From NCBI GenBank assembly GCA_010093745.1, contig MU005973.1, forward strand, positions 186,001 to 250,000: a stretch of DNA of 64,000 nucleotides, in the 5' to 3' direction. Every line of letters begins with the position of its first letter. The first letter of the stretch is position 1. The stretch is from Piedraia hortae CBS 480.64. Taxonomy: Eukaryota. This document shows positions 12,100-63,941 of this stretch, piece by piece. Under the pieces are notes generated by a model, which worked only from the letters and a program-made list of their open reading frames with translations, had not been told where the DNA came from and did no database searches. The position numbers and the translations under genes were made by a program.

Positions 12100-13092
12100 A
12101 TGTGAGGCCATCGGCCCACTTCTTTGCAAAATGTATCCCCGATGGGGGCCCGTTTCTCCTCATAAGGAGTTCCTTTGGGCTCGAAACCCTCAGCGGCGCA
12201 GGGACTACCAGGCTGACGACCGCATTACCATGCGGAGACAGCTATGCCATTCGTGAACTGTACGTGTCATGTAATCCGCGGCAAGCAGCACACTGGACCA
12301 CGCTTTCCATCTTCCATGTGCATCAAGGTCGGGCACTACTTCCGAATACATGGAATGGCGAGACTGGCTTGGCAAAGGAGATTGTTTACCGGCAGCCACA
12401 ATCTACCAAGTAATAGTGGTTCGCCGGCACCTCAGAGTACCATGACTCCATAGTCATTGGCCGAGTCCTCGCAACCGGACTGGACGAACGTGATAAACAT
12501 GTCAAAATCGCACGCGGTCACGACATTATGTGACATCACAACCTTCCTATTGCGCTAGGCTTGCAGACCCTCGAAATCCTTCGGCTGCGCGGAGACAAAT
12601 GTGCCGTCTATGGAACCAAGCACACCGTGGAAGAAGAGGTTCGTGGCGTGTTTAATTCCTCAAGAAAGTAGCCAGCCACAGGACTTTTTTTTTTTTTTTG
12701 GCTCTCCTGGGCAAGTATCGCGCCAATGCGATCACTGCTTCGTTAATGCACCGAGTGAACGTGAGGTAGCAGTGCTGATATTGCCGGCGCAACTGGCGGT
12801 AGGTTTTCTTGCGTGCACAGTAGTCCAGAAATATTGTCAGTTTCTCAACTGCCTTTACGTTTGTGTCTCGGAGGCCGCAGTCGCCCAACTTTTTTACCAG
12901 CATGCAAAGGGTGTGTTGTGACATGCGGGTGGTATTCCAGCAATACTGCTCGTCACTCTCCAGTATACGTCGGGTCTCGAAGTAGCCCCTGTACGGATCG
13001 TCCAAAGTGGTGGGCACTACTGGGCGACTGCGATGATCTTCGATCCCTCTGCTCTCAACTTGCTCTTGCCAAGGCGACGGCACAACTGCCAT
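12100..13092 (-). mobile_element. PIF/Harbinger transposase pseudogene (DDE_Tnp_4-like)
   Basis: RMSQHTL..AVEKLTIFL..TYRQLRRQYQH (HTH), GSIDGTFV, RNRK..SHNVVTACDFDMFITFVQSGCEDSAND, HYYLVDCG; disrupted by frameshifts near a T15 run (12685-12699) and in-frame stops. Confidence 0.88.
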
Positions 13093-13199
13093 GCTGCCAC
13101 AAATAGTGCGGGTGGCTTCTCGTCCAGGAAATGTCGTCCAGGCGTGTGAAGAGATGGTGTCCAGCCTGTTTGTTGGCAGCTAGCATGATCGCAAAGCCG

Positions 13200-54147: not shown

Positions 54148-54857
54148 TCCTCGGCCGCAGCAATTTTCTGGAACATGTTGTGGTACGGGGGAGTTAATGA
54201 CCGTGAACTGTGAGCAAATGATTGCGAAAACCCAACAAAGCAAAGCCTTTACTAACATCCACAATGCCGGGACGTTGAACGGCCATAACTGCGGTCTAAT
54301 TGGCCCAGTTCGCGCCAGGTTAAAGTGCGCAGCCTTAGCTCCAACCCAAAGCAACAAGCGAGAAACAAGCAGAGCTTTCCAGTTTGGTTATATTCTACAT
54401 CAAACAATGGGCGGTTTGCGTTACTATGAGTGCACGAGCAACGTGTCAATCGGGAGTGATTGCTGTCACCATTTGCGAGTGGCAGATGACATGCAGCACC
54501 CATGCATAATCTCGTATTCGCATTCAAGCCCGGCCGTTTTGGGGAAAAACGTTAGGTAAGGCGTATGGGGAAGAGGATGGTGGTACATGAAACACGCCTA
54601 ATGCAAGTCTTCATGACTGCGCGTTTTCTCACCGTGGTAAGCTTCCCCCCTCTAGGAAAGAGTTTCACCCTTTAACTTTCCCACTAGCGTCTGCTGTTTG
54701 TGTGTGTGATTACCCAACCCCCATGCAAGCTCTACATTAGAATGCGAAACCTGCTCCATGGTACCAGAATGGCGGAAGCGAACAACGTACGAGTGAGAGA
54801 TGGGTTCGCTATAAGGCAGGCCCTTTTTTTCTTCGCTTCCTTTTCTTCTCATCGACA

Positions 54858-56624
54858 ATGGTTCAAGCATCGCTTATCGCTCAGCTGAAAAAGCAAAGTC
54901 CCAACGTTCCCACTCGAAAAGCCCTGATCCTCACGGGGCTTCAGAATGACTTCATCTCGCCAAACGGCAAGTCTCCGCTCGAATCAGAGGGCTGCCTCGC
55001 AGACCGTTTGCGGAGACTAGTTCCAGCCTTTCGACCGTTTGGTGACGTGATCTGGATTCGCTCCGAATACGACGGCACAGACGACGATGGGGATGGCGCC
55101 GTTGTGGCTGATGATGATGAACTTTTCCTCTCATCCAAGATTCGCGATCCCTGTTGCTTAGCAGGATCCTGGGGAGCCAGATATCCCACTGAACTAGAAC
55201 ACATACAGGAAAAGACAGACTGGTATGTCACCAAAACCACGTATTCCGCATTTGCCTCGACGAATCTGCTCTTAAAACTCCGCTCGCGTCTCATCACCGA
55301 GCTCTACTTTGCCGGCTGTCAGACGAACCTCTCAGTCTTTGCAACCGCCCTGGACGCGGCTCGTTACGGGCTAAAAGTCACAATCGTACGTGACTGTGTG
55401 GCGTATCGGCGTCGCCACCGCCACGAAGAAGCAATGCGCTATCTCATCGAAGCAATGGATGCTGAAGTCGCCTCCACATCCACTGTCCTGTACGATCTGC
55501 ACCCGACCAAACCATCCGGTGACAGCCCGCTAGCCGTAAACAGCGATTCCGAGGACGAGGAAATGCCAGACGTATGTCCCCTAACCTTACCAAACCACAA
55601 ACCCACTTACACAAGTACAGTACCAATCCCTAATATCGCGCCTCCCAATCCGAGCCTAATGACGACATCAAAACCAATATTCCCCGACTCCTCCTCCAGC
55701 AGCATTACCAACAATCTCCTCTCCCCCTCCGAAGCATCCACAATCTTCACCCGCCTTAAATCCGAAGCCCAATGGCAAACAATGCACCACCAAACAGGCG
55801 AAGTCCCGCGCCTGGTATGCTGCCAAGGTGATACCGGCTCCGATGAGCCTTTATACCGCCACCCATCAGACCGTACATTACCCCTAACGCCCTGGACACC
55901 CGCCGTCGAAACTATCCGCCGCGCAGCGGAGCAATCCGTCGGCCACGAGCTCAACCACGCTCTGATACAACTCTACCGCTCCGGAGCGGATTACATCTCT
56001 GAGCATTCTGACAAGACGCTAGACATTGCTCCGGGAAGTTTTATCGTCAATGTATCTTTTGGCGCGCAGAGGACGATGAAGTTTCGATCGAAAAGGGGTT
56101 ATAAATCTTCCAACTCTGTAGATACCATCGCTAGGGGAACGGACATGGAAGGCTCTACAAGTGCGGATCATACTGTAGATGGCCCTGCAGATCTCCTTCA
56201 AGGGGGTGTAGATCCCCAAACAAGTCCTCCAACGCCCCCTTCCCAGAGGACTATCATCCGCGTCCCCCTACCGCACAACTCCCTCCTCTCCCTCTCCCTC
56301 CCCCACAACGCGAAATATCTCCATTCCATTCCCACAGATAAACGCCCCGCGTCCCTCCTTTCTCCCGAAGAGGCCGCGTACGGGGGGGAAAGGATTAGTC
56401 TGACTTTCCGCAGAATAGGTACCTTCCTCACCCAAGAGGGGAAGATTTGGGGGCAGGGGGCTGTTTCTAAGACTAGGGATAAAGCGGGGTTGGTGATCGA
56501 GGGGGGGGCTGAGGCGGAGGGATTGTTGAAGGCGTTTGGACGGGAGAATCAGTGTGATGAGGGGTTTGATTGGGAAGGGACGTATGGGAGAGGGTGGGAT
56601 TTGGTGCATTTGAAAACAATATGA
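54858..56624 (+). CDS. Isochorismatase-like / AlkB-type 2OG-Fe(II) dioxygenase fusion
   Basis: ALILTGLQNDF, KTTYSAF, VRDCV (cysteine-hydrolase fold); LNHALIQLYR, EHSDKTLD, YLHSI, RISLTFR (2OG-Fe(II)). Confidence 0.9.
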   Translation: MVQASLIAQLKKQSPNVPTRKALILTGLQNDFISPNGKSPLESEGCLADRLRRLVPAFRPFGDVIWIRSEYDGTDDDGDGAVVADDDELFLSSKIRDPCCLAGSWGARYPTELEHIQEKTDWYVTKTTYSAFASTNLLLKLRSRLITELYFAGCQTNLSVFATALDAARYGLKVTIVRDCVAYRRRHRHEEAMRYLIEAMDAEVASTSTVLYDLHPTKPSGDSPLAVNSDSEDEEMPDVCPLTLPNHKPTYTSTVPIPNIAPPNPSLMTTSKPIFPDSSSSSITNNLLSPSEASTIFTRLKSEAQWQTMHHQTGEVPRLVCCQGDTGSDEPLYRHPSDRTLPLTPWTPAVETIRRAAEQSVGHELNHALIQLYRSGADYISEHSDKTLDIAPGSFIVNVSFGAQRTMKFRSKRGYKSSNSVDTIARGTDMEGSTSADHTVDGPADLLQGGVDPQTSPPTPPSQRTIIRVPLPHNSLLSLSLPHNAKYLHSIPTDKRPASLLSPEEAAYGGERISLTFRRIGTFLTQEGKIWGQGAVSKTRDKAGLVIEGGAEAEGLLKAFGRENQCDEGFDWEGTYGRGWDLVHLKTI

Positions 56625-56838
56625 AAGGGGAGGGGTTGAGTTCGTAGGGTATTGGGAACGCATTCGTGCTCGGCGTGCGAGACAGACCTTGGCGAAGTAT
56701 GTGGGCTATGTGAACGCATTGATTAGTGGTCTGCCGTACAGGTTCAGCAGAAAGGTTGGATTGGGAGATGACGTGTGGACTTGGGGTTGGATGACGGGAG
56801 GGAGTTTGATATGGATATTGCAGTAATGTTACTAACAT

Positions 56839-57579
56839 CACTGCCGGCAAATTACGGTAAACTTACAGCTCACGTGATGGGACATGTAAATTATCCGTAA
56901 ATTTACTGCTAATTCACGTGCTAGATTACACTAGCCAAGTTGGCTAGTACCAAAAGGGAGCGCTGGGGGCGCGATGCCTTTTTGGGACTAGTGACTGGCA
57001 TGGATCTGACCTCACTTCTGTTGAGACTTGCTAACGATAGTCAGGATCAGACGTTGCCGAGCCGTGATAATCTCGAAGTTGGCGGTGCTGAAAGCGTGAA
57101 GCGTGAACGGCATGGTGCTACGCCCGACTGCATCTACAGTTGCCGATAAACCTTGGAGATAGGAGCATATATTCTTTGAGGAACGATGCTCACCATGGCC
57201 ATTATCGGACGCGTGATGGCCTTCAGACTGGTGGTGCCGAAAGCCTGAAGAATCGCTTGATTTGTCGGCACAGGACATGAAAGAACCTCCATTCAGCGAT
57301 GAGGCCATAACAGAAGACGAGGCTATGGAAGGCAGCCAAATGGTTTGGTTGGATGAGGAGATGGATGACGAGGGCTGCACCTTGGAGAGTGAAATGTTAT
57401 CAGTGGCTCTTTTGTTGTAAGGTAGCTGCGTGTAAGAGTTCATATCGGACTGTTGACTTTCGCTATGTATGTCGCACATCAGGGTTGAAAAACCCGTCTC
57501 CGGCTACCTCTGTGAAGAGGTGTTGGAGGTGATGGTAAATTTACCGCGTGGAGCGGTAAATGTGGTAAATTTGCCGGTA
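56839..57579. mobile_element. Non-autonomous TIR element with CACTG terminus (CACTA/CMC-like), about 740 bp
   Basis: Left CACTGCCGGCAAATTAC, right GTAAATTTGCCGGTA; CAT (ACATC) on both sides; several GTAAA[CT]TTAC subterminal motifs at both ends. Confidence 0.6.
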
Positions 57580-57887
57580 CATCTATAATTTACTAGTCAT
57601 TGCAAATCTGGGTAAACGCAAATCGCCCCGATCCCTAGGTACACAGCCAACCCCCCGGCATGATGCTGCGTCATGCGGGGTAGGTTGCGTGACGCAGGCG
57701 ATTGGGCAACTAATCTCGACATGTCGCGAACATATCAAGGCCATTGGCAAGTCAAGCACATACAGATAAATATCAAAAGAGAACACGGCCGTTTTCCCAA
57801 GAGTACCTTCTCCACCTGAAAAATCAGATAATACTAAATCCCCTTACAAATCTCTTGCATATATAAATCTCAGACAGCCCAGCAGGA

Positions 57888-60800
57888 TCAATTATCATGC
57901 GTTAGCATGTGGATGTTTTCGATCCAGCGATTGCCATACACGCCGTCTGCGGAGTGCCTCCAAGCAAACCCTTCAACGATTTCCCGTTCTCTTCTGGTTG
58001 GGTTAGGCACCCAAACTTTTCGGCAATCCACAGTGTAGAAGTGTGGCACGTTTAGGACATTGGAGATCGAGCTCACGGGCACTGTTGTGAATCGCTCACG
58101 AGAGGCCAACAAAGGAAACCCAAAGGTGCCATGCTGGTCTTCCAATGTGGTTGTGCAAAATTCCTCAAGAAAGGCGACATGATGGGCTGTGCCCAGCTGT
58201 TTCAAGAGAAATCTGAGCCGGAAAATAGTCTGACCACTACATTTGACAAACGATCTAACACTGCATTTGACAAGTGCATGCAAGCGGGTAAATGCCTTGT
58301 GCGAGTGTTGGGACCAGCCCAAGCCAAACTTCGTAAAAAGCCCATCATGAGCTGGCAAATCCCCTGGTGGCAATTGTATGCTCATCATGTGAATCGATGC
58401 AGCCGGTTCATCGAGAAGGCCCAACAGCCGCCGCATCCTCGGCTGGTTGAGAGCCTCGATGCACTTCTCCCCGGCCTGTGTCATATGAGTGCCATCATGA
58501 CACCAGCAACCCCGGTTGGCAAGATGATTTTGAGTCGCTCCAATTGACGCATGACCAGCGGCATCAAAGGAACTTTCTTGATGGTTTGAGTGCCGTACGT
58601 AACCCCGCAGGTGCCGATTGAGCGATTCTGGGATCTCCGAGGATACTCCTTACGGTGAGCCAATTCTGCGCACCATTTCAGGCACATGGACAAGCATATG
58701 AAGCTTTTTTTTTTCTTTTTTTTTTCTGATGCTGTCCAGGCCCAAGGCGTCAATTCATAGCTGAAGCATACTTTCGTAACGATGCTTGAACAGTGCTGCC
58801 CACCGGTTGATGTCTTCGATCTGCCTAGAATATATCATCCTGGCAAGATCGGCTGCGACACACCACAGCAGCAGGAGCCTACGGACCGTACCCGTTCGTC
58901 CCCTTGAGGAATAGAAGGAGACCAAAGTTCCCGGCCAGATCTCGATCAAAGCCCGAGAATCCGAGCCCACGAAGGACTTGCTCCTAAGCAGGATCTGTTG
59001 CGCGTCCAGAGAACTGTTCATCCCATCCCGGCTTGATGAGGCTACGCAGAGAGCCAACTCCTCAAAGTCCGATTTAATCGTCGGGTCATCCAGAGACTGG
59101 TGCCAGAGGCTTCTGACAAATCCCAGTGGCACACCATGCAATATTTCAGATGGGATATCCTGGTGCATATCAAATCCTTCCAAGTGGTATAGTGAAGAGA
59201 TTGGTGGCTTGCTGCCATTCCCAGTTCTCTCAAGTGCCCGAGAGTACTCTTTGGATCTGGGTGCTGCCGCCGAAGCCACATCTTGCCACGACGTAACACT
59301 TGCTTTGTTGAACAAGCAATTGCGGCAAGAGCAGTTACTCGTGTGCTGATGGGAGATCACACCAGAAGCTGCAGGAATGTCTGCGAGAGCCATGGTAACC
59401 CCTCCAAAGACGACCTGCGCTCTCTTACGCCGAGGATCAAAAGCTTTGATTCCCCGTTGGAGCCGGACGAACTCAGGAGTGAGGCTATCAATCATGGTAT
59501 TGCCCTTCATCCTTGCCCCAACAGCCACGAAATGGTTGGCGGAGGCATGGAAATTTTCCGTGAAAGGCATTAGTGACCGTACCGCATTGGTTGCGAATGC
59601 AGGATAGTACTCACTGCACGTGGCTTCCCGGAAAAGGTAAGGGACCAAACCTCCAGAGGGTTCCATTTGGAGGTGGTTGTGGCGCTTGTGCCATCCGTCC
59701 AGAAATTGATGTTGAGTTGGGAGACTCCAGCTCCATATATTTCGTGACAAAGGCTCGAGCAGGATGTGGTTTCGTTACGAATTCCACGAACCCCGGAGCA
59801 AGGCGTTCCGCATTTTCGGCTACCAGACTGACATCAGACCCGGGAAAAGCGTTGAGAATTGTGTACTCTGGCACCCATAGGATCGTATCTTCTGCGACAT
59901 CTGGGAAGCCGTTCAAAGTTCTGATGATGACGATAGGACGGTGCACGCTTTGGTCGATGGACCGACGTAATTTCATTGCACGTACAACACTAGTATTTCC
60001 GTGGATTTCACGACCATAGAACATGACGAATTCTGCAGAATCACCAGGCGAAAGCTGCAGAATATCGCGGAGCCAAACGTCAACTTCTTGACCCTGGAAG
60101 GCCAGAGTTTCCATCGGGCGGAGCAAGCGAGGCTCCCACCTGCACTTATTTGCATGCCAAACTTCCGAGCAACGATTGCTCTGGATAAGATCAGTCGTGG
60201 CCGGGCTGCTTCGAGAGTCTACCACCTGTGGAAGCTGAGCAAGTGACTTCCACGAGTCACTCGCAGCCTGCATCCTGACGATGTCAGGTATGCTGATTTG
60301 ATAAAAAGGTTTGTTTTCTGCGTTTTTCCTCTTCTCCACCTTCGGTCGTGGCATCTTGTCCCGAAACTTTTTCAGAGCCTTCAGCGAGGGGATCTCAACG
60401 GGGTGGTCCATCACCAGGATGTCACGAGCGAGGTCTAGGACACTGGACATTATACTGTCACTTATCAAATGACTATGGTTATGTTGAAACATAATAGCCG
60501 CAGGAACTCCCCCGAGGGGAAAGGAAACCAGGGATTACTCGGCCGAGAAATTCTCACGGGCTCAGGAGCCACGAAAATAGAAGGATTCGGGCCGTCCGTC
60601 TCCATAATCGCCTTGAATTGAGGTTAGTCAGGCTCATACCGAGGGAATCTGTCAATCGACTTACGCAATTCCTCAAGAATAGGTTATCTTCTTCAAGTGT
60701 TTTTCCATCGTCAGAAGCGTTTAATGACATGAAAACTTCGCATTCATCATCACCCTCCCCCCTCCCCCCCTCCCTGGCCCGGAATATTCACATGCCCCAC

Positions 60801-61338
60801 TATCGTCAATCTGATCATCGGTACACTCGCTGTTGAGGGAACTGCGAACTTCGTCGTTATGCTCGGGATTCATCTGATATGCACTGGCACCACTTTTATC
60901 TTCAAAATGCTGGTCTACTGCGTACGCAGCACCAAGTTCTTCAAGATCGTTCGCTGTATCCGCATGGGTTATTGCCCATGAAGGACCCTGTGCTTCGGCT
61001 GACGCCGCTTGCTCCGCAATTCTTGCGGCAGCCTCCGCAGCTTCCACCGCTCTTTTGTCTCTGACCACTCTTCGAACACCTTCGGCATTATATCGTTCAG
61101 CAAAATCCAAGTACTCCTGGTAAAGCTCGGGACCTGTTGTCTGCTTGTCCCGTTCATTTTCCAAGTGCTTACTTTCAAGATGTTCCCCAGAAAGTTTGTC
61201 CCGAGTGGTCAGCGTGGGGTGAGTGCCCTTTTCATGACAGAGCGGGCAGTTGCTTGGCGGAAGTTTGGGTTTACGACGTTTGGAAAGCATTCTGTATGGT
61301 GAAGGAATCAGACATTCAATTGAGTTGCTTGAAGTCAT
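57888..61338 (-). mobile_element. Decayed EnSpm/CACTA (CMC)-like transposase, about 1,150 codons
   Basis: C2H2-like CPLC..HLESKH; SEVWHANK; INFWTDGTSATTTSKWN; LADIP..SH..CSCRNC; HQDIPSEILHGVPLG; KLHMLVH..RRIG; SE..ESLN..SNH; split by several frameshifts and 2-3 stops. Confidence 0.8.
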
Positions 61339-61860
61339 CGACAGTTCGCATGGAAGGCAGCAACATGAGTTGGAACTTCTCGAATTTTTAATCTATGGAT
61401 CATATCATCAAGGTGTTTCCCAAAAGCTTCCCGTCAACACATCAAAAGTTTGATCGACACGAACCGCGACACGGGGAGATCAACATCAAGTGATAATATT
61501 GAAACAACTAGAGTTTTGACTATGTGAATTTGTTTTTGTGACACTACCTACTGGAAAGCCACATTCCGGTTGGTGAAAGGCAGAGAAGAAATGCTTTTGC
61601 ACAGACGCTGAGAGCTTGAACAGTTCCAACATGAGAGTGATGGATGAAGGATAATGCCACCCATCCTGGTGAAGATGAAACCGTTGAGCAACCAAAATCG
61701 CCCCAAGATCTACCGCGTGGCGGTGGTCCGCCATCATCCCTTGTTAAGTGGCAGTTTAGGGAAACAAAGAGACCTCAGCAGTCTTGCAGAAAACAATATC
61801 CTCGGTGCTCGCTCTCCCACTATCTCCCAACTTGTTTACATCACCTCCACATTACACACT

Positions 61861-62575
61861 ATGCCAAAACAAACAGGCATCAAGAGCAAAGGGAATGGCA
61901 AGCGCATCGTTAAAAACCAACCAGAAAGTGCACCTCCCGAACGAAACATCCGACAGAGAACTTCGGGTGCAGCTACCGCGCCTGAGAACACGCAAAAAAT
62001 TCGAAGGGCTGTAGGCAGAACTCGCAGGACACCGGGTCGGACGATTCTCCCGTTCTGTCCAGGCACGTTAACGCTCCTGAGAACGACTCTCGCCGTCGTA
62101 TACCACAGAATATATGCCAGGAGATGACCGGATAGATTTCGGAAACTACGACACCGGGGTTGAGATTGATCAGCAGTCGGAAGTTGCAGGTGTTCGGCCG
62201 ATTCAGGGCCTTGAAATAAGACTCGACACACTGGTGAACGATCTCAAATGTTCAAGTGCCAACAGTGGCTCCAAAAACGGTGCATCTGCCGAGGAAGTTG
62301 TTGCATTCGTGCAAGACACAAATCTCATGGAGCCAGGCTTCATGAGGACATTGCTTAGAATAAATTCGCCCGTGATCGCGAATTCGTTCATACCGCGAGG
62401 GCTACAACTAGTCCTCCGAGACAACGCAGAGCTGCGCCAAGAGCTGCGCGAAGTCAAAGACCAAGTCTCGATCTTGGTCGAATGGGAGGTTATCAACCCC
62501 CACTCACAGAACAGTTCCACTATGCAGGATCACCGTCAAGCGGAATTAACTCACTCGTCCCAAACCGAACTCTGA
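61861..62575 (+). pseudogene. Frameshifted ORF divergent from the transposase; candidate second gene of the element
   Basis: MPKQTGIKSKG basic start, frameshift near 62030-62115, coiled coil LRDNAELRQELREVKDQV; TGA overlaps the kinase ATG. Confidence 0.45.
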
Positions 62576-63941
62576 TGGCGGACCCAGGAGAGAAGCCTTT
62601 TCCATATGAATGCGCTAACGCTGATTTTGAAGCGCTCTTTCGCCATATACCGGGCGGATTCCACCCTGTGCATCTCGGGGACATCTTGCACAATGAGCGT
62701 TATAGGATCTTGCACAAGCTAGGCTATGGATCCTTCTCAACTGTCTGGGCGGCGAGAGATGAACAGTAAAGCTTCTGCACCCCATCTTACTGGTGAGATA
62801 GGCTAATCGATATACAGGAAGCAAAGATATGTGGCGATCAAAATCCCCGTTGCGGATGCTCCGTCAACCCTCGAAACAAGCATCTTAAGAACTTTGGCAG
62901 AAAGTAAGACCGAACACCCCGGCATGGCCTACTTACCCACCCTGCTTGACGAATTCGAGCTGGTAGGGCCAAATGGAACACATAATTGCATTGTAACTGA
63001 AGTTTATGGCGTCTCCGTCGGGTTAGATCTGGAGGACGAGCATGTCCCACTCCTTGCCAGTGCTGCCAGGAGACGTCAACGAGAAGTTCTACAGGCCGTC
63101 GACTGCCTGCACCAACATGGCATCGTGCACGGTGACTTGTATACCGGCAACGTCGTGTGGACTCTACGCGGCGTCGATGATCTTACAGAAGAGGAATTTT
63201 TGCGGTTCTTTTGTTATGCACAGATCAAAGAAGTGAAGAGCAAGGACGGATCCCCTCTGCCGCCGAATGTGCCCAGATACCTTGTGAAGCATGACTATCG
63301 TCCTACTCAGGCTTGGAATGAGGACGACATCATGCTCATAGATTTCGGGCAAGCGTTTCATTTGAATTCCCCACCAGATGGGCTCGTGACCCCGCTGCAA
63401 TATCGTGCCCCAGAGATTGTTTTCGAAGAAACGCTTGACGAAAAGGTGGATGTGTGGAGTGCTGGCATGTTGGTATGTGCTTCATCTGTCCGACACCTCA
63501 GCAAGCTCACCTCGATAGTGTTTTGTGCTGTTGACCACCTTCCCACCAATAGACCCAATGATTTTGGATGAAGACGAGCTCATCGATGCTCTGATCAAAG
63601 CGACCCATCACCAGCTTCCCGAACGTTGGCAGGAAGAAGGCCAAGAGATGATTTCTAACGTCAAGTATCCCGCTTCCGACGATTATGCAAACTTTCAAGC
63701 AATCATTGAGGCATTCGTTGAAAGGGCCGATAGCGAGAAAGTGCAGGATTTACCAACACAGGTTTTCCAAAGGGCAGGAGACCTGTTCGAAAAGACATTG
63801 CGATTGGATCCCAAAGAGCGCATCTCGGCAAAGGAAGCTCTCGAGTTGGACTGGTTCAAAGATACTTCCTCACCAGCCATTCTAACTTCCACTCCTGGAA
63901 CGTCGGGTCCCACTTCTAACACACGCAATCCCGACAGTTAG
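62575..63941 (+). CDS. SRPK-like Ser/Thr protein kinase; introns 62766-62817 and 63473-63518
   Basis: GGFHPVHLGD, YRILHKLGYGSFSTVW, YVAIK, GPNGTHNC, HGDLYTGN, DFG, YRAPE, DVWSAG, LRLDPKERISA. Confidence 0.92.

Follow-up and report, generated by a model that had tools for sequence, protein, structure and literature searches.

What is the long, broken coding region on the minus strand at 57888-61338 of the 64,000-nt stretch of Piedraia hortae CBS 480.64 analysed here (contig MU005973.1; hereafter the window), and from where could such a gene have reached an ascomycete? Very probably it belongs to a dead, right-truncated, ESTA-like cut-and-paste DNA transposon of the CMCT clade, one copy of a multi-copy family of this host. 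The first-pass annotation had joined the separate open reading frames (ORFs) of the locus into one gene, and this was borne out by searching every one of the window's 1,549 stop-to-stop frames with a hidden Markov model (HMM) built from relatives and, in part, from near-identical P. hortae copies. Five pieces matched in collinear order (E 3e-8 to 1e-120), so the homology is not due to chance. Additionally, a second HMM, for which only the N-terminal parts of seven distant relatives were used, matched the pieces at 60724-61392 (E 6e-6) and 59614-60534 (E 2e-4), and tblastn with intact relatives returned the same order of pieces at 26-43% identity. Intact relatives have 1,041-1,166 residues and are collinear with the window pieces. 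Related proteins are cited below as P0001, P0002 and so on, and metagenome loci with relatives as L001-L017. The pieces are one decayed DDE transposase gene, read as follows:

57888-61338, minus strand: transposase pseudogene, about 1,100 codons without its two introns; start uncertain, at 61338 or 61290
59559-59614, minus strand: intron of 56 nt (GTGAGT...CTAAT...ACG), with a non-AG acceptor in this copy
60612-60664, minus strand: probable intron of 53 nt (GTAAGT...CTAAC...AAG), across which two frames join in phase

The single joined protein proposed earlier stands, while its length of about 1,150 codons does not: that figure is 3,451 nt divided by three and includes both introns, without which there are 1,114 codons from the ATG at 61338 or 1,098 from the ATG at 61290. 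Likewise, the frame breaks had all been taken as frameshifts; at least three are, and two junctions are introns. The gene lies at the coordinates first given for it and is part of a larger element, from 57642 to about 62480. Concerning the introns, the one at 59559-59614 is spliced at the same place in the gene models of P0002 and P0003, and an intron at the same codon and phase was found in L001-L004 (four of four examined). The segment at 60612-60664 is probably an intron as well, judged from its consensus splice signals and the joining of the frames. Contigs of two public runs, X1 and X2, were matched to the window at 80% likeness (287 X1 contigs, 138 of them less than 95% alike), and no spliced sense RNA over 60612-60664 was seen among them; that X2 is RNA is a database guess, and the two introns found skipped in these runs were seen in X2 only.

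The catalytic motifs could be placed one by one. A first catalytic Asp had been predicted in a frame missing from the original ORF list, and six-frame translation found it there: INFWTDG...KWN...GKPR reads at 59710-59618, in a stop-to-stop frame (59570-59833) that has no ATG. The order of motifs given earlier for such enzymes recurs in the consensus of 108 relatives, DDTSGNxSKxWN / GDNP / EILHxxLLG / KFHxLxH / TExFESxN. Conservation was counted in a core alignment of 101 rows, comprising 97 core-covering proteins, the window and three loci, in which two Asp, CxxC, ExLH, KxHxxxH and ExxExxN are nearly invariant:

61165-61248, minus strand: N-terminal zinc-finger-like motif CxxC...HxxxxH, aligning with the motif of the seven distant relatives (E 6e-6)
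59693-59695, minus strand: first catalytic Asp (FWTDG), D in 77 of the 80 rows that are not gapped there
59379-59381, minus strand: second catalytic Asp (LADIP), D in 92 of the 94 rows with a residue there
59316-59327, minus strand: C(2)C motif (CRNC), whose two cysteines occur in 88 and 82 of 101 rows
59136-59147, minus strand: EILH motif, H in 100 of 101 rows
58686-58706, minus strand: KLHMLVH, the H(3)H motif, with K, H and H in 101, 101 and 98 of 101 rows
58626-58628, minus strand: probable catalytic Glu (ESLN), E in 99 of 101 rows

A second conserved E stands three residues upstream of the ESLN Glu (100 of 101 rows); we take the latter to be the probable catalytic one, by analogy with the ExxN motif of RAG1. 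The A-run before KLHMLVH holds three in-frame residues more than in P0002 and P0003. Pfam recognised C2H2-type fingers in P0043 and P0127 and none in the window piece.

A sequence search of the PDB gave no match for the transposase. The fold was approached through P0003, which is 78% identical to the window core and was modelled with AlphaFold from a 108-row alignment (mean predicted local confidence, pLDDT, 86). Foldseek returned 45 matches for this model at E<=0.001, and the matches listed were all RAG1, BbRAGL or Transib. When the model was compared with 48,161 chains without filtering, RAG1 came top (PDB 6DBI; Z 20.0, root-mean-square deviation 4.0, 371 aligned), ProtoRAG scored Z 18.5 (6B40), and the next structural matches were the P element (13.9), Transib (6PQN; 12.4) and Hermes (8.6). 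The catalytic core is thus alike in fold, although sequence identity of RAG1, ProtoRAG and Transib to the model is 8-14%. The kinship to RNase H-fold enzymes on which the first-pass annotation had staked its reading is found in this RAG1/Transib-like model of a relative. Unlike in the RAG1 and ProtoRAG systems, no RAG2-like gene was identified here, and Transib and RAG make 5-bp duplications.

The gene as it stands in the window is broken in several places. The C-terminal block had been read in frame through two stops into the ORF starting at 57888, and both stops were confirmed. They are listed with the other lesions:

60750-60790 (approximate, about 60770), minus strand: frameshift in a G-rich run, deduced from the frame switch where local homology is weak
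60486-60492 (about 60489), minus strand: frameshift after the PWFPFPS motif, where the frame switches between homologous blocks
59735-59736, minus strand: 2-nt insertion causing a frameshift, specific to the window copy; lacking in four X1 and three X2 contigs, and read through by P0002 and P0003
58755-58757, minus strand: premature TGA, a sense codon in P0002 and P0003
58650-58652, minus strand: premature TAA, a sense codon in other copies

In addition, other copies differ from the window at 59560, within the damaged acceptor of the intron at 59559-59614. Nine protein-changing core differences appear among the 40 variant rows (of about 740) on which the comparison with the X1 and X2 copies rests; at six of them the two P. 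hortae proteins agree with the other copies, and at three with the window copy, P0002 being gapped at one. With its frameshifts, two stops, damaged acceptor and missing second end, the window copy is dead. The enzyme cannot be made from it. Repeat-induced point mutation (RIP) was considered as the cause of the decay and was ruled out by the dinucleotide indices and by symmetric transition counts; no RIP signature was detected (TpA/ApT 0.48, composite index -0.93).

One strand-specific observation bears on whether the locus nevertheless does something:

60623-60677, plus strand: 55-nt GT..AG intron of an RNA antisense to the transposase, skipped in one X2 contig (377 nt, 0 differences from the window copy) and in none of X1

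The ends of this intron fit GT..AG on the plus strand only, and the locus seems to yield a spliced antisense RNA, as observed in one contig of one run that is RNA by guess. This RNA spans 60514-60945 (plus strand) and has no long reading frame. Its intron overlaps almost fully with the probable minus-strand one at 60612-60664, and the sense branch site can be read as a donor on the opposite strand. It could be argued from the X2 contigs identical to the window copy, one of them spliced, that the locus is a domesticated or still functional gene, maintained by recoding, read-through or a functional antisense unit. Such a function is scarcely credible in view of at least three frameshifts, two different stops and a non-AG acceptor, where lesions covered by other copies are absent from those copies; moreover, the spliced RNA is antisense and lacks a long frame, and X2 is RNA only by database guess, although the two introns are skipped solely there.

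The limits of the dead element were sought next to the gene:

57640-57641, no strand: TA flank, the presumed target-site duplication; other contigs diverge just before 57640
57642-57710, plus strand: terminus that starts CACAG, with short hairpin-like repeats behind it; TACACAG occurs nowhere else after 55000
57642-62480, no strand: repeated, right-truncated element, covered by divergent contigs
61648-62480, plus strand: divergent second coding region in two overlapping frames (ORFs 61648-62127 and 62081-62575), repeated in other copies

Before 57640, six X1 contigs (agreement 0.47) and two X2 contigs run into different flanks, hence this is a true terminus, with the TA common to the copies. 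Other copies carry small indels at 57651-57702. A partner end, that is a right-hand inverted repeat, was sought within the window and not found, which means that the copy is cut off on the right and is not mobilisable as a unit. Behind 62480, three X1 contigs switch to one common other sequence (agreement 0.91). The second coding region received no Pfam identity and no Atlas match above 0.81, and its best score against the counterpart in L002 (51) falls within the range of 30 shuffles (39-51).

What the intact form looks like can be seen in the metagenomes, where 17 loci were confirmed among 148 candidates. L002 is a complete relative of 5.7 kb, reading TA/CACTA...TAGTG/TA (the slash marks the element boundary) with a 32-nt inverted repeat at 91%; it encodes a two-exon transposase and has room for a divergent second gene. 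L001 has the right end of L002 with a different flank, and L003 ends GTG/TA. Paired TACAC..GTGTA ends occur in one of the 17 loci (L002), most of the loci being short or partial. Two contigs with more distant relatives (L015:1-7402 and L017:13465-13469) start TACAC and/or end GTGTA at their extremities, as if they were whole TA-flanked elements; these are candidate ends only.

To which group does the element belong? In the study that serves as reference here, ESTA is defined by TA target-site duplications and RAG1 likeness within the CMCT clade, the clade has common C(2)C and H(3-4)H motifs, and the 84 listed ESTA families all begin CAC (Kojima, 2025, PMC12730594). Read by their name suffixes, those 84 would be families of rusts or Agaricus bisporus, none of an ascomycete. 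The same source treats fungal EnSpm, which makes 3-bp duplications, as distinct from ESTA, gives Plavaka the termini TGT..ACA (A) or CATCA..TGATG (B), and describes a 7-8 bp target duplication for KDZ (Kyakuja-Dileera-Zisupton; PMC12730594).

The window holds the D-D-E triad together with CRNC and HMLVH, and the RAG1-related RNase H fold comes from the relative P0003. Termini of the CMCT type, 5'-CA..TG-3', are present as CACAG at 57642, the one end of the window copy, and as CACTA..TAGTG in L002; the window end and L002 both start CAC as ESTA families do. A TA duplication is seen for the clade (L002 on both sides, the right ends of L001 and L003, and the copies diverging before 57640) and is one-sided in the window copy. 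The earlier label of EnSpm/CMC-type transposase therefore holds as far as fold and motifs make this a CMCT DDE transposase, whereas the nearest published match is ESTA, not EnSpm proper or Plavaka. Relatives of the window include a protein of Melampsora, a genus that appears in the ESTA list. Against that list there are also differences: the motif around the first Asp is WxDG in the window clade and DDTSG in the wider group, L002 as a complete relative measures 5.7 kb vs about 6.6-14 kb for the listed autonomous families, and four of the 84 listed families carry a TET/JBP gene, of which none was seen here.

Fungal EnSpm/CACTA (Transposase_21, PF02992) is alike in its CAC..GTG ends (L002 starts CACTA), its motif order and the presence of a second gene, but it makes 3-bp duplications by the source just cited, whereas L002 is flanked by a common TA only (left ..CTA, right TAG..). 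Plavaka (PF18759) is likewise a fungal CMCT transposase and supplies the nearest Atlas clusters, but its published termini differ from the CAC..GTG seen here, and PF18759 was unmatched in window pieces and relatives. KDZ was rejected, given TA here vs its reported 7-8 bp, with no KDZ Pfam match in window pieces, P0001-P0003 or 35 relatives. By the definitions of that source, Plavaka, fungal EnSpm and KDZ were excluded because their ends and duplications differ.

Several points weigh against ESTA. The tree includes no published ESTA protein, and membership is judged from ends, motifs and fold. The fold comes from a model of P0003, which carries mutations at the first two catalytic positions, and is thus a prediction for a relative of the window protein; a full-length model of P0004 from a shallow 14-row alignment had a poor core (pLDDT 55). 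The window copy has only one end, so that its own TA duplication is not readable. In an Atlas feature search, the clusters found were ones in which 38-100% of the members carry Plavaka (PF18759), and intact relatives match Transposase_21 weakly (E ~1e-3, below cut-off): among 35 relatives, seven reach 17-21 bits where the cut-off is 28.6, with no match for window pieces or P0001-P0003. For the enzyme, no Pfam family came above its cut-off in the transposase pieces among 11 window pieces, in P0001-P0003 or in 35 related transposases. Plavaka or fungal EnSpm proper could be claimed on the basis of the Atlas look-alikes, which include Plavaka and Transposase_21 clusters, and of the weak Transposase_21 scores, all the more as the motifs are common to all CMCT groups in PMC12730594. 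Such an assignment is nonetheless quite improbable, because CAC..GTG ends with TA are unlike the Plavaka termini or EnSpm 3-bp duplications given there, and for Plavaka no Pfam match was obtained at E<=0.01 in the 35 related transposases or P0001-P0003.

Concerning the host range of the ESTA-like family, HMMER returned 438 proteins at E<=0.001 (18 at 1e-30) from 1.84 billion representatives. The organism was looked up for 30 of the 150 matches listed among these 438, and 19 of the 30 carried an organism name: six P. hortae, nine basidiomycetes, four chytrids or blastoclads and no other ascomycete. The two closest proteins (89% and 78% identity) are annotated in P. hortae, a Dothideomycete, which makes the Eurotiomycetes, in which the first-pass annotation had framed its comparison, a doubtful frame; P. 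hortae also holds subfamilies near 30% identity to the window protein. That the family is uncommon in Pezizomycotina, as had been supposed, fits the annotated proteins among the 19 named, but a sample of 30 out of 438 misses unannotated or RIP-damaged copies. Word-index protein searches, with 8,000 candidates scored in each, gave two matches, none among longer proteins and six with a profile; as known relatives were missed, this is weak evidence of absence. None of 140 candidate stretches of viral contigs encoded a relative. A literature search, whose coverage did not include Repbase and most subscription journals, found no report of ESTA or CACTA in an ascomycete.

A quick tree of 101 rows unites the window, the P. 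hortae proteins and environmental copies in a long-stemmed clade of 17 rows (SH-like approximate likelihood ratio test, SH-aLRT, 99). This clade is recovered in a quick 89-row tree (SH-aLRT 99) and in a 36-row bootstrap tree (100/99), where it stands outside a 16-row basidiomycete clade. Approximately unbiased (AU) tests rejected its grouping with the rust pair (p 0.0025), with seven agaric rows (p 0.00045) and with all 16 rows (p 0.0055), under LG+G4, with long branches, for 36 of the 101 rows and with row sets chosen after the first tree. Within the clade, about 1.6-1.9 changes per column separate the window from other members. P0004, P0006, P0007, P0011 and P0168 form a sub-clade of intact single-ORF transposases that lack the intron common to the window and L001-L004. 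The lineage appears to be old and distinct from that of the basidiomycete sequences; within it, the P. hortae proteins have apparently split into at least two or three subfamilies. The unclassified lineage proposed earlier is upheld as a sub-lineage, with its own clade in the trees, and not beyond that.

The horizontal transfer from rusts or other basidiomycetes suggested by the first-pass annotation is not supported, and for the donors sampled the AU tests largely refute it. Its attraction is that the best named matches outside Piedraia, among the 30 looked up, are basidiomycetes (Lentinula P0017, 127 bits), that the 19 named matches include no other ascomycete, and that the ESTA families listed in PMC12730594 are all basidiomycete. 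Such a donor is highly improbable, however, with identity to basidiomycete proteins of only about 22-25%, deep diversity inside the window clade, its position outside the 16-row basidiomycete clade and three rejected groupings. The rejections thus leave a basidiomycete donor unsupported, and a plain descent in a single Dikarya lineage is not supported by them either. The simplest reading is that of an old paralogous branch, most of which has been lost or has gone unannotated.

Horizontal acquisition by the Piedraia lineage, whether old or more recent, from another ascomycete or from an unsampled early-diverging fungus would fit the patchiness of the clade, all of whose named members come from one species. 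A profile search of 90% clusters yielded six proteins, none named, the indices given above show no RIP signature, and the clade does not come out as sister to the basidiomycete rows, contrary to simple vertical Dikarya descent. This route is unlikely all the same: no donor was found, the nearest members outside Piedraia are about 26-34% identical, the two or three deeply split P. hortae subfamilies and the intron common to the window and L001-L004 suggest that the family has long been resident or diversified long ago, and loss, RIP damage or missing annotation explain the patchiness equally. A fuller proposal would see here a CMCT lineage not yet described, whose distance from rust and agaric ESTA equals that between the latter and chytrid relatives, kept in a few filamentous ascomycetes as intact copies with no RIP signature (L002, P0004, P0006, P0007, P0011 and P0168) and passed to Piedraia from an unsampled fungus. 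Taken whole it has a small chance of being right, while its first part alone, a separate lineage, is somewhat favoured.

L002 and L006 adjoin HET and NACHT-type genes. Their hosts may, more narrowly, be Pezizomycotina. As proof of this, the neighbours were set aside, because NLR genes of the HET/NACHT kind occur in agaricomycetes too (PMC4986451); on that basis they point to filamentous Dikarya.

How RAG1, Transib and CACTA-type enzymes cut and join DNA is established. By extension from this and from the fold, the intact family would encode a transposase of about 1,100 residues that binds short terminal inverted repeats beginning CAC. Both ends would be cut by an RNase H-fold D-D-E centre with an inserted zinc-binding CxxC/HxxxH domain and joined into a TA site, which would thereby be duplicated. 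The divergently oriented second gene is probably an accessory factor, by analogy with CACTA elements. The analysis itself shows the motifs, the fold, one TA/CAC end whose flanks vary, a relative that is complete with TA on both sides, and the copy-specific lesions; family activity, hairpin chemistry and the role of the second gene are putative.

The window is gene-dense fungal DNA, and by Pfam the pseudogene lies between an isochorismatase/2OG-Fe(II) oxygenase gene (54741-56624) and a protein kinase gene (from about 62576). The former (plus strand) is a single-frame fusion of an isochorismatase domain and an AlkB-type 2OG-Fe(II) oxygenase; it lies outside the element terminus and is thus not a captured TET-like gene. 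At 57580-57641, CTAGG/TA abuts the CACAG terminus and looks like one end of a CCTAG-type element that has the TA in common with it, which suggests that one element may have been inserted at the target site of the other, at the TA of 57640; no partner end of the CCTAG-type element was found after 55000. The segment at 56839-57580 is probably a remnant of another repeat, as it starts CACTG and has GTAAATTTAC-type repeats near both ends with a partial inverted match; other copies differ there, one lacking 103 nt. In the region 62451-63941, the kinase gene starts about 100 nt beyond the element break, and one X2 contig, which is spliced at 62766-62817, has its start within the remnant. An X2 joint leads back to about 64 nt resembling 56765-56830, a hint of a direct repeat that would enclose the whole block and lie past the end of the window. 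Contigs of kinase paralogues match in this region too. Farther away, a short minus-strand frame at 12652-13179 may, by resemblance, be a PIF/Harbinger transposase fragment.

The window copy itself is inert and amounts to ordinary transposon debris. With its family, the range of ESTA-like elements, which were named in 2025 and are listed from basidiomycetes, takes in an ascomycete and, at the protein level, chytrids and blastoclads. As the family has no Pfam model, it would be missed by domain-based transposon surveys. Its intact compact relatives (the 5.7-kb element and the single-ORF proteins) are practical material on TA targeting by a RAG1-like enzyme, and a repeated ascomycete element that shows no RIP signature offers a modest clue to host genome defence.

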